DNA of 64,000 bases from Nitrospinales bacterium (GTDB taxonomy: Bacteria; Nitrospinota; Nitrospinia; Nitrospinales; VA-1): contig OZ253496.1 of NCBI GenBank assembly GCA_965262115.1, positions 1,376,001 to 1,440,000 of the forward strand. Direction: 5' to 3'. The position numbers and the translations under genes are program-made. Under the pieces are notes generated by a model. It did no database searches. It worked only from the letters and a program-made list of their open reading frames with translations, and was not told where the DNA came from. Of the stretch, positions 40,910 through 43,818 are shown one piece after another (position 1 is the first letter of the stretch; every line of letters starts with the position of its first letter).

Positions 40910-42014
40910 AATGCTCTTCCTAAAAGTGATTACTCTAAATACATTTTAGCTATTTTTCCCATTTAATTGCAAATCCCCATTTCAATATTTTTACACAACC
41001 CAAAACCCCTCAGACGCAAGCCCTAGTAAATCTTTTTTAATTCTGTAATTATCTCTTAATTGCATCAAATATTTTAGGATAATCAGTGATCTTCCCCTGT
41101 TTTAGTGGACAGTTAGTTAAGAGGCATAGGCCTGTTTCTCGAATTCGGCAGGGCTGAGATAGCCGAGATATTAGTGACGGCGTTGCCGATTATAAAACAC
41201 TTCGATATATTCAAAAATATCCTTCTTTGCTTGCTGACGGGTTTTGTAGTTCCGGTTATGAATGAGTTCCACTTTGAGAGTATGGAAAAAACTCTCCGCC
41301 ACGGCGTTATCCCAGCAATCGCCCTTCCGGCTCATACTGCACTCTATCCCATGAACATTGAGCAAGGCTTGAAAATCGTTGCAGGCATATTGAACCCCCC
41401 GGTCAGAATGGTGAATCAATCCCGGTTTCATGCCGCCGTTCTTCATTGCCATATTTAAAGCTCTCATTACCAACCAACGGGTTATCCAACGATCCATGGC
41501 CCAACCAATAACTTTACGGTGGAATAAATCCAGCGTCACCGCAAGGTATAACCAGCCCTCTTGAGTCGGGATATAGGTGATATCCGAAACCCAGCATTGA
41601 CCGGGCTCAGCAACATTAAACCGCCGTTGCAGTTTGTTTTTTGCCACCGGGTGATTATGTTTGGAATCGGTTGTCACCCTAAACTTTCTTTTGTGCTTGG
41701 CAACGATTCCATGCTCGCGCATAAGACGGGCAATACGATGCCTGCCAATGGCATATCCCTTGTCTTTCAAGTCCTCATGAATTCTGGGACTGCCATAAGT
41801 CTGGCGACTCTTCTTATAAACGGTTTTGATCTCATCAACCCATCGCTGCTTCTCACGGCTCCTCAGGCTCTCGGGGCGGCTCAGCCAGGCATAGAACCCA
41901 CTTCGTCCCACTTCCAGAACCCGGCACATCGGGCTTACCGGAAATGCTTCTCGATGATCCCGTATAAACCGATATCTCATTGGGAACCCTTCGAGTACCC
42001 CTTGTATGTTGTTC

Positions 42015-42230
42015 ATAAGGGGAATTTGTAGTAGTTGTACCTGTGAGCCCTGTGGGAAGCCGGTTTTGTGTTTTCCACAAGGCTCACAGGGTTTGATTCA
42101 GGGCACAATAGATCGTTTACCCCTTGGGCTTTTAAGCCCGTCCCGAAGCGCAGATCGTTGTGTCCTGTTTTGATTAACCCGAACAGTTGCCTGGGCCACT
42201 GAGCCCGCATCGGCAAGGCTGGGAGACCAA
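42015..42230 (+). ncRNA. Predicted IS110 bridge RNA (ends approximate)
   Basis: 5' hairpin 42040-42090; target-binding loop 42099-42167 with guides TACCCCT and CCCGAAG; donor-binding loop 42178-42223 with guides ACAGTTGC and CAAG. Confidence 0.85.
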
Positions 42231-42233
42231 ATT

Positions 42234-43174
42234 ATGAATCAGAAACCCCATTTTATTGGCATCGATATTTCTAAACTCCATCTGGATGTTGCTGACAGCA
42301 TGACTCAAGAAACCTGGCAAACCGCTAACAATGAAGAAGGGATTGCTGGTTTGGTCGAGAGTTTATCCGCCTTAAATCCTCCATTGATCGTTTTGGAAGC
42401 CACAGGCGGCTTAGAGATCCCGTTGGCTTCGGCCCTGGTTGCGGGTCGACTGCCAGTAGCCGTGGTCAACCCACGGCAAGTTCGTGATTTTGCCAAAGCC
42501 ACCGGGAAACTGGCAAAAACCGATGTCATTGATTCTCTTGTGCTGGCCCATTTTGCCAAGGCCATACGTCCTGAGGTCAGGAAAATCAAAGACGAAGAAT
42601 CTCTTGAACTCTCAGCTCTAGTGACACGCCGTCGCCAGTTGATCGAGATGCTGACCAAAGAAAAAACCCGTCTAAAACAAGCTCCAAAATGGATATGTAA
42701 AGACATTAAGGAGCATATCGAATCTCTTAAAAAACGCTTGCGAAAAATCGATGGCGACCTTTCCAGAACCATCAAAAACAGTTCTGCCTGGCGTGAGCAC
42801 GACCAGATCATACAAAGTGTTCCCGGTGCCGGTCCCGTTCTGGCTGTCAACCTCTTGGCCGGGGTTCCGGAACTTGGAGTTCTTAATCAGAAGCAAATCG
42901 CCGCCCTTATCGGTCTCGCTCCCCTCAATCGGGACAGCGGAAAGTTCGGTGTATCCGGGGCGGTCGCGCCAATGTGCGTGCCGCTTTATACATGGCCGCC
43001 GTCACTGCCATGCAGCATAATCCCGTGATTCGTACCTTTTACACACGCCTCATCGAAAAGGGCAAACCCTTTAAAGTTGCCATTACCGCATGCATGAGAA
43101 AGTTATTAACGATCATCAATACCATGATCAAAACAAAAACACTCTGGAATGAAAATCTCATTGCCAGCACTTGA
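42234..43174 (+). pseudogene. IS110 recombinase, frameshifted just after DSGKF
   Basis: GIDISK, LEATG and KTDVID (DEDD); catalytic Ser in RDSG. The C-terminus [16 protein letters not shown]...ACMRKLL is in another frame. Confidence 0.88.
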
Positions 43175-43191
43175 CATTTAACACAGTTGCT

Positions 43192-43302
43192 TCGGGGCAT
43201 GAGATACCCGTGCCGGGCATGAAGGCAAAGGTAAAATATCACATACCCGTGCCGGGCATGAATTTTAAGGAAGAGGACATCACAGCTATGAAAGAATATC
43301 AC
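43192..43302. repeat. Tandem mini-element array
   Basis: TACCCGTGCCGGGCATGAAGGCAAAGGTAAAATATCACA followed by TACCCGTGCCGGGCATGAATTTTAAGGAAGAGGACATCACA. Confidence 0.85.
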
Positions 43303-43415
43303 GGCCACCGGCGGCTCGTCGGCCACGCCTGGTGGGTTGACGGAGCCGGGTTAGGGCGTTATGATTCTTTTTCATTAAATTTCTGGAGCAAAGAATGGGG
43401 TACAAAGAATCTTAT

Positions 43416-43571
43416 ATGCCTGAACCCTTGGATGAGGGCCAAAAGAAGAAGAAAAAAGAAATTTTAAATACCCGGATTGCTCCGGTCGACTTTGAAAATA
43501 TTAAGGATGTGGGTGATCTGGTGGAGTCGTTTCAATCGGCTTCCATTCAGGCCCGAAACCTCGGGCAATGC
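43416..43571 (+). pseudogene. 5' fragment of a deoxyhypusine/homospermidine synthase-like gene fused to the IS3 end
   Basis: PVDFENIKDVGDLVESFQSASIQARNLG resembles the DHS-family N-terminus; the sequence switches to IS3 at 43562. Confidence 0.6.
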
Positions 43572-43818
43572 TATCGCCTACTTCAATAACCAATCGAACC
43601 GCTTCTAACTTGAATTCTTTACTGAAACTCCTGCGTTTGGTTCCCATAAAAACACCTCCAAAAGTGTATTATCCACACTTTTCGATGTGTCCACCAATTC
43701 AGGGGAAGATCACAGTATCTAGTAAAATATGTAGTTCACTTTGAAAAAGGGGGATAAAGCCTCATCTAAGCCGAAACAAGTTTTTGCCAGCCAGAAAATT
43801 TGCTATCTGCCTCCCTGG

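Follow-up and report, generated by a model that had tools for sequence, protein, structure and literature searches.

A putative bridge RNA pairs an IS110-family element with one hairpin-repeat variant, carried also inside an IS3-family element, in a Nitrospinales bacterium

A 64,000-nt stretch of the genome of a Nitrospinales bacterium (assembly GCA_965262115.1, contig OZ253496.1, positions 1,376,001 to 1,440,000) was analysed; it is called the window here, and all coordinates are positions in it unless given as genome positions in the complete 2.68-Mb host genome. At 41087-43712 it contains an IS3-family insertion sequence (IS) that is interrupted by an IS110-family element, lodged in a hairpin belonging to a 41-nt mini-element within the IS3. 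The features of the locus are as follows.

41087-43712, minus strand: IS3-family element, copy 2, rearranged inside and dead, with a 3-bp duplication CAG at 41084-41086 and 43713-43715
41171-41980, minus strand: IS3 orfB, integrase core (Pfam rve/HTH_21), split from orfA by the IS110
41995-42002, plus strand: left half of the split hairpin, GTACCC-CT, which is the end of the IS3-borne 41-nt mini-element
42003-43191, plus strand: IS110-family element TGTATG...GTTGCT, 1,189 bp, with no inverted ends; the CT core is the only sequence in common with the target
42234-43174, plus strand: recombinase gene, broken into a 264-aa open reading frame (ORF) at 42234-43028 and a remainder at 42974-43174
43171-43176, plus strand: -35 hexamer TTGACA at the IS110 right end, read from the sequence
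43192-43571, plus strand: right half-hairpin (TCGGGGCATGAG), repeat units 43205-43243 and 43244-43284, and codons 1-59 of a deoxyhypusine-synthase-like gene

The left junction of the IS110 element (42002/42003) reads ...GAGTACCCCT followed by TGTATG..., the IS3 side ending ...CGAGTACCCCT at 42002, and at the right junction (43191/43192) the element ends ...ACAGTTGCT and is followed by TCGGGGCATGA. The two flanks fused give TACCCCTTCGGGGCATGA, a hairpin split by the IS110 as TACCC-CT-TCGGGGCA, and the same sequence stands unbroken on the minus strand of IS3 copy 1 at 16065-16083, as had been proposed in a sequence-only reading of the window that named the hairpin of the mini-element interrupting IS3 copy 1 as the IS110 target. 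The span 42003-43191 counts the shared CT once, and IS110 insertions have no duplication beyond the CT core. A BLAST search of the insert against the genome gave 29 matches, comprising 21 full-length copies of 98-100% identity, two copies of a paralog (89%) and six fragments. The junctions of the main family are ambiguous over three nucleotides (CTT), and the core was settled as CT by the paralog and eight relatives, as in IS621; TT as the core fits the main family but fails for the paralog and the relatives.

An intact recombinase ORF of 316 aa is present in 15 of the IS110 copies. Its product matches the Pfam families DEDD_Tnp_IS110 (PF01548, E 1.4e-25) and Transposase_20 (PF02371, E 2.3e-20) above their cut-offs, and in a sequence search of PDB it aligned over residues 1-304 with the recombinases of ISCro4 (E 1.7e-33) and IS621 (E 9.9e-31). 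The segments GIDISK (D), LEATGG (E), KTDVID (D..D) and DSGKF (S) align opposite the ISCro4 motifs; the catalytic residues of IS621 are given as D11, E60, D102, D105 and S241 in the part of its structural description that was available (PMC11208158). In the window copy, a 10-bp deletion after 42946 shifts the frame and yields 264 aa instead of 316, retaining only the first half of PF02371; judged by its reading frame, this copy is dead and its recombinase is no longer made. Contigs of other runs that cover 41800-43400 include both forms of the 10-bp indel as well as an empty IS3 site. The deleted bases are CCGGGGCCGC; the deletion and a linked single-nucleotide polymorphism (SNP; W>R, RCIRGG) are common to the IS3-borne copies and the 89% paralog, and the 3′ end of the paralog is nearly identical to that of the main family, a pattern that suggests gene conversion between the two lineages.

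The region 5′ of the recombinase gene has the organization of a bridge RNA gene, with predicted parts as follows.

42003-42226, plus strand: putative bridge RNA gene, with a 5′ stem-loop (42039-42092), a target-binding domain (42099-42167) and a donor-binding domain (42178-42223)
42116-42125, plus strand: left target guide UUUACCCCU(U), same sense as the target left half TTTACCC plus the CT core
42140-42148, plus strand: right target guide GUCCCGAAG, complementary to CT-TCGGGGC with one G-U pair
42182-42191, plus strand: left donor guide AACAGUUGCC, same sense as the IS110 right end ACAGTTGCT (ACAGTTG-CT)
42208-42217, plus strand: right donor guide CAUCGGCAAG, in which CAAG is complementary to CT-TG at the IS110 left end

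The 230 nt 5′ of the recombinase start fold better than shuffled sequences (z -3.8). Homologous IS110 left ends were found in 10 other genomes of the phylum among 119 searched besides the host, and an alignment of 10 sequences from 7 genomes gave a consensus fold of 35 pairs in which 94.6% of cells are paired, versus 35-50% when the partners are slid. Eleven of the pairs have changes on both sides (compensatory), and none of 500 shuffles scored as high. The fold consists of the 5′ stem-loop and two domains, each with a basal stem, an internal loop and a distal hairpin. Rfam returned no match to a bridge-RNA family in the element. A sub-threshold match to sX15, a small RNA of Xanthomonadaceae, lies on the minus strand at 42087-42243 (33.7 bits against a cut-off of 55, E 0.005); it spans the whole model and overlaps both bridge RNA loops on the opposite strand, and the sX15 family might be related to IS110 left ends.

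The target guides agree with the insertion sites of this genome at 7-9 of 9 positions on the left and, on the right, by seven Watson-Crick pairs and one wobble pair out of eight. When guides and flanks of 10 elements were compared over 13 non-core positions, cognate combinations matched at 8-12 positions and non-cognate combinations at a mean of 5.2. The left donor guide matches ACAGTTGC, and the A/G of ACAG/ACGGTTGCT covaries with the right end in relatives, which carry (U)ACAAG in the right donor guide. Joining of the right end to the left end in a circular form would place TTGACA 17 nt before TATGTT (42005-42010), and equivalent hexamers are kept in relatives. Such a joint was not found in the assembled contigs of four runs, which cannot show rare forms.

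The genome contains 295 hairpins of the form ACCCN-NNN-NGGGCA, with loops that are almost all T-N-C (a TTC loop being GAA on the other strand) in a unit of about 40 nt that is often tandem and resembles repetitive extragenic palindromic (REP) sequences. The variants, named by stem and loop, have the following numbers of free copies.

CCCC/TAC: 43
CCCG/TGC: 38
CCCC/TGC: 37
CCCC/TCC: 32
CCCG/TTC: 31
CCCC/TTC: 29

All 21 full-length IS110 copies are inserted in the CCCC/TTC variant, the target form of the main family being TTTACCCCTTCGGGGC, and about 45% of the members of this variant are occupied. Left junctions of the main family abut ...CCCCT in 23 of 24 cases (one with an extra T), the lone exception being a copy at a CT inside the left end of another copy, and the right junctions read (T)CGGGGC in 24 of 24; among the approximately 200 hairpins of other variants (CCCC/TAC, CCCG/TGC, CCCC/TCC, CCCG/TTC and so on) there are no main-family copies. 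At genome 2144620-2145981, a 163-nt IS110 left-end fragment leads directly into a full copy, with the junction at a CT of the bridge RNA gene (GTGTC-CT-G), which looks like an off-target self-insertion followed by deletion. The genome-wide count of occupancy per variant thus bears out the proposal of the sequence-only reading that the guide tracks the GAA-loop CCCC variant only. Of the variants that it expected to escape targeting, those with a CCCG stem are unoccupied; the CCCC-stem variant with the GCA loop does not escape, being occupied by the paralog. Empty targets within the window are located as follows.

15703-16992, plus strand: IS3 copy 1, free of IS110 and carrying an empty target
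16043-16083, minus strand: 41-nt mini-element in the IS3 frameshift window (boundary uncertain by 1-2 nt)
16068-16082: free target TACCCCTTCGGGGCA in the mini-element of IS3 copy 1
4663-4677, plus strand: free full target ATTACCC-CT-TCGGGGC
4873-4887, minus strand: free full target
15235-15249, minus strand: free full target

Four occurrences of the 12-mer TACCCCTTCGGG were counted across the window (4663 on the plus strand; 4876, 15238 and 16071 on the minus strand), versus 0.00 expected from 100 shuffles. Exact targets had been reported at the first three of these places, and each proved to contain not only the 12-mer but the full target of 15-16 bases.

A search for paralogous IS110 elements with changed guides, which had been recommended as a check, was answered within the same genome. 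The two copies of the 89% paralog (genome 1834462 and 1931073) are flanked by TACCCCT on the left and, beyond their own end ...GCT, by GCGGGGCATGA on the right, and their flanks rebuild TACCCCTGCGGGGCA, the CCCC/TGC variant, with 35 free copies; a target with a four-nucleotide loop, TACCCCTTGCGGGGCA, was rejected, as it has one copy versus 35 for TACCCCTGCGGGGCA. In its target loop the paralog RNA departs from the main family at exactly two bases; the left guide has U>G following the core, the right guide has A>C, and both substitutions face the single target base that differs between the TTC and TGC loops, so that the paralog fits the variant it occupies. Three relatives of the same genus have G at that position of the right guide, which would pair with a TCC loop or wobble with TTC; the sole flank available for these (genome G073) is TTC. 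The left half-sites of the two paralog copies are different and correct, and the 227 nt of right flank that they have in common are otherwise unique, a pattern that would fit recombination at one junction only.

Taken as a whole, the sequence evidence makes it very probable that 42003-43191 is an IS621/ISCro4-like IS110 element with a 5′ bridge RNA that spells out both halves of the hairpin, and that RNA-DNA pairing guides its insertion. By homology to IS621, a circular copy of the element would form, with a joint that creates the promoter TTGACA-17-TATGTT; target and donor would each be recognised by base-pairing to the bridge RNA, with strand exchange by the recombinase at CT. Several observations weigh against this interpretation. 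Many occupied sites, among them the one in IS3 (AGTACCC against UUUACCC) and two that have an additional C, do not match the left guide at its first two to four positions; recognition would therefore depend mostly on an effective site TACCC-CT-TCGGGGC. The second core position of the left donor guide is C, not U, in all 10 relatives, and the right donor guide pairs over 4-6 nt, with only four or five contiguous bases in this genome. Both paralog copies are pseudogenes, and with 227 nt of right flank in common they are not two clean independent insertions. Finally, no RNA, circle joint or empty-site polymorphism was seen, the runs being assembled contigs that are blind to rare forms.

How the IS110 came to be so often inside IS3 is a separate matter, and the window locus is a complicated instance of it. 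The inverted ends of IS3 copy 2 read TGATCTTCCCCTG from 41087 and CAGGGGAAGATCA up to 43712; IS3 positions 1290-373 correspond to 41087-42003 and positions about 156-1 to about 43555-43712, and in place of positions about 157-372 and of the distal half of the mini-element stand 379 bases from another locus. These bases (43193-43571) are a copy of genome 2115684-2116062, the right flank of the IS110 at genome 2114486-2115683, with 379 of 379 bases identical in direct comparison (99.7% over 377 by BLAST), and they meet IS3 near position 156 via a 10-nt microhomology CGGGCAATGC (43562-43571). The outer CAG duplication is intact, which indicates that IS3 copy 2 was damaged where it now lies, probably through repair that used the other IS110 locus as its template. 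The three-level nest that had been read from the window is real as regards the 41-nt insertion in IS3, which is evident from IS3 relatives in two other genomes (G020 and G070; see below), but the window IS3 is a rearranged chimera rather than a simple nest, and its IS110 is dead. Clean nests of IS110 in IS3 are present elsewhere, for example at genome 1462090-1464568. A lone IS3 left-end fragment (positions 1-258, 100% identical) lies at 35430-35687 of the window.

In the genome as a whole, ten right parts of IS3 and eight or nine left parts adjoin an IS110; 10-12 IS3 hairpins are occupied, versus seven uninterrupted IS3 copies, and about half of the IS110 copies are in IS3. One repeat unit is present in every IS3 copy, so IS3 offers the IS110 target. 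In statistics that count related copies as independent, IS110 occupies 10-12 of the 14-16 perfect hairpins carried by IS3 and 11-13 of the 36-38 located elsewhere, a higher share inside IS3 (p about 0.01), and association with IS3 is found for six of six full-length copies that have the 10-bp deletion (plus one truncated copy) versus four of 15 intact copies (p 0.004). SNP haplotypes of IS3 and IS110 are co-inherited at loci with different outer flanks, namely genome 656654 with 1774196, and 1462090 with 1933517, the window locus and 2518396. The higher occupancy inside IS3 would be expected if every nest were an independent RNA-guided insertion and IS3 were simply the most abundant or accessible carrier of perfect targets, and at least four combinations of IS3 and IS110 haplotypes exist, which point to several independent hits. 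As an account of all the nests, however, independent insertion is unlikely, given that the recombinase-dead, 10-bp-deleted type occurs only with IS3, that sister composites have derived SNPs in common in both IS3 and IS110 although their outer flanks differ, and that the IS3 site fits the left guide worse than many free sites do. It is probable that many of the nests multiplied whole, through transposition of IS3 or recombination among its copies, and do not go back to fresh IS110 insertions, a history read from these sequence patterns. Three points complicate such hitch-hiking: most IS3 copies have unrelated or shared flanks in place of clear target duplications, apparently as a result of recombination between copies, the SNP patterns among IS110 copies are mosaic, and an intact recombinase could mobilise deleted copies in trans. 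Target duplications as a test of composite transposition gave no discrimination, only AGC (genome 656653) and CAG (window) being readable. Where the nested unit is copied along with IS3, the copy number therefore overstates the number of independent targeting events.

The sequence-only reading had raised a possible arms race, in which the repeat, or the IS3 bearing it, diversifies its hairpin to escape the guide and IS110 lineages follow. Several patterns agree with this. Guide alleles differ exactly opposite the middle base of the loop (A in the main family, C in the paralog, G in the three same-genus relatives). Three of the seven uninterrupted IS3 copies (genome 411122, 603553 and 1657487) have a C>A hairpin, TACCCCTTCGTGGCA, that mismatches the right guide, and none of the three is occupied, versus 10-12 of 14-16 IS3 copies with a perfect hairpin (p 0.04-0.05), the one direct hint of escape. 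Insertion of IS110 severs IS3 between orfA and orfB, harming IS3. In one complete genome of the same genus that has no match to the IS110 left end (G072), all of the first 40 of 95 hairpins have the TTC loop; many of these are in clusters spaced about 96-270 bases apart. On the other side, the copies are related so that the small counts are not independent, and the three IS3 copies with the mutation may represent a single recent lineage. The repeat is a non-coding unit of 40 nt with no evident cost when split, and hairpins of this kind vary freely at the closing pair and at the central base of the loop. The same variant spread is found in the first 100 of 178 places in genome G053 of the same genus, which has only an internally deleted IS110 remnant, and the repeat is present in 20 of 22 same-genus genomes, versus three of 22 for the IS110 left end; the comparison of loop variants covers part of the hairpins (100 of 178 places in G053, 40 of 95 in G072) and few independent genomes. 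It is accordingly doubtful that the hairpin variants are the product of an arms race. A bolder form has three nested selfish elements that co-evolve, IS110 being an RNA-guided killer of IS3 that severs 10-12 of 17-19 copies precisely at the orfA/orfB overlap by way of a hairpin acquired from a third element, IS3 escaping by a single hairpin mutation and IS110 re-aiming by paired guide substitutions at the base opposite the loop; it too seems improbable, but were it true, the variants of guide and target would be the trace of an arms race still under way.

The mini-element in IS3 is, by comparison with relatives, a real insertion into the frameshift window between orfA and orfB. The unit is carried by all seven uninterrupted IS3 copies and by all IS110-split copies of the genome. 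Set against IS3 copy 1, the IS3 relatives found in G020 (75% identity) and in G070 (71%) remain colinear but lack exactly 41 nt (approximately 16043-16083); their layout is the canonical one, in which orfA terminates at ...LKKAAVIFSKGSQ* and A AAA AAG leads into orfB in the -1 frame. The presence of the 41 nt in every IS3 copy of the genome, and the finding of no IS3 form free of them in the assembled contigs of four other runs (two of which barely contain IS3), might suggest that the sequence is native to IS3 and that the repeat family of the genome was derived from it. Such an origin is most improbable, considering that the relatives lack exactly these 41 nt and keep the canonical overlap, that the insert throws orfB out of the -1 frame, and that matches to the repeat by itself occur in 20 of 22 same-genus genomes while, in the searches made, this IS3 was found at more than 75% identity in no genome besides the host.

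Of the features of its family, the IS3 has the orfA helix-turn-helix and orfB rve domains, A AAA AAG, IS3 ends and a CAG duplication, but with the insert its -1 frame stops at TGA and orfB is in the +1 frame, whereas in the insert-free relatives orfB follows in the -1 frame. There are 17-19 IS3 copies at 99.6% identity or more, all with the frame-breaking insert (16024-16100 in copy 1), and the only other IS3-family transposase in the genome is a remnant of 55 aa. Candidate routes to an OrfAB fusion are a +1 shift within the hairpin, a hop from CUU to CUC across the insert after a -1 shift, and a helper since lost. A +1 slip at CCC-CGA as the source of the fusion protein is weakened by three IS3 copies at different loci that read CCA-CGA; CGA and AGG are the rarest arginine codons, yet not very rare (5.7 per 1000 each). 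IS3 copy 1 adjoins a hairpin, TTGATCCTCCCCTCTCATGAGGGGAGG (15672-15702), that resembles the end of IS3 itself, and several IS3 copies have common left or right flanks, such as AAAATATAACA (three times); IS3 also seems to land in repeated sequences, with recombination between copies having shuffled the flanks.

An alternative to RNA guidance, that the recombinase reads the DNA hairpin by protein contacts alone and the complementarity of the 5′ end is incidental, gains a little from the target being a structured palindrome and from the specificity that a target stem-loop is described as adding for ISPpu10 (10.64898/2026.03.19.712850, in the part available), but it is scarcely credible when guides and flanks covary across relatives with quite different, partly non-palindromic targets, two guide substitutions in the paralog track one target base, and the enzyme is homologous to that of the RNA-guided IS621.

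Elements of the IS1111 group that target the ends of another transposon were reportedly described by Partridge and Hall in 2003. Like these, the IS110 element has a fixed target inside another mobile element; unlike these, for which the target is the transposon's own end, it is inserted in a third element lodged in the IS3 coding overlap. The solved structure most closely related to the recombinase is that of ISCro4/IS622 (PDB 9t56), about one third identical by eye in an alignment of the recombinases.

IS621 of E. coli has a 177-nt bridge RNA according to the available parts of its descriptions (Durrant 2024, PMC11208160; Hiraizumi 2024, PMC11208158). The resemblance to IS621 as described there (PMC11208160) extends to the homologous recombinase, an RNA encoded upstream of its gene with a 5′ stem-loop and target and donor loops, a left guide of the same sense and a right guide complementary to the target with the CT core within the guides, a repeated extragenic hairpin as the target, and -35 and -10 elements split across the ends. 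The present element differs from IS621, to the extent of the same account, in that its right target guide is about 9 nt long instead of 4, its left donor guide has C at the second core position, and its hairpin belongs to a different repeat family of about 40 nt in Nitrospina-type bacteria.

Targeting of REP sequences by IS110-family elements is established in the accessible portions of the literature (Tobes and Pareja 2006, PMC1525189; for IS621, Choi 2003, cited in PMC11208160), as are bridge or seek RNAs and their natural retargeting (PMC11208160; PMC11187229). ISPpu9, ISPpu10 and ISPa11 likewise have all copies at one fixed point of a host hairpin repeat, and two different IS can use one repeat family, by the excerpts available (PMC1525189; 10.64898/2026.03.19.712850); unlike what is described there, the lineages in the present genome are close paralogs with compensating guide bases, and the repeat unit is also found inside another IS. 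As with ISEc11 and ISXne4 in the available text of Siddiquee 2024 (PMC11187229), related elements differ in their guide segments and targets; there the whole target changed between species, with three of 13 bp kept, whereas here one target base and the two guide bases that face it changed within one genome. A literature search of limited coverage found no paper that joins Nitrospina and IS110.

With both the mechanism and REP targeting already known, this case is a clear natural example of a known mechanism and not a new one, and knowledge of that mechanism is unchanged by it. Its value is as a natural data set on bridge RNA specificity in one 2.7-Mb genome, comprising approximately 25 insertions, 29 free perfect targets, about 200 unused near-targets that are one to three bases off, a candidate one-base escape allele and a paralog re-aimed by two guide changes. 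It also indicates that an RNA-guided IS can multiply passively when it is carried within another IS, so that the counts of "targeted" insertions in surveys may overstate the number of independent events.

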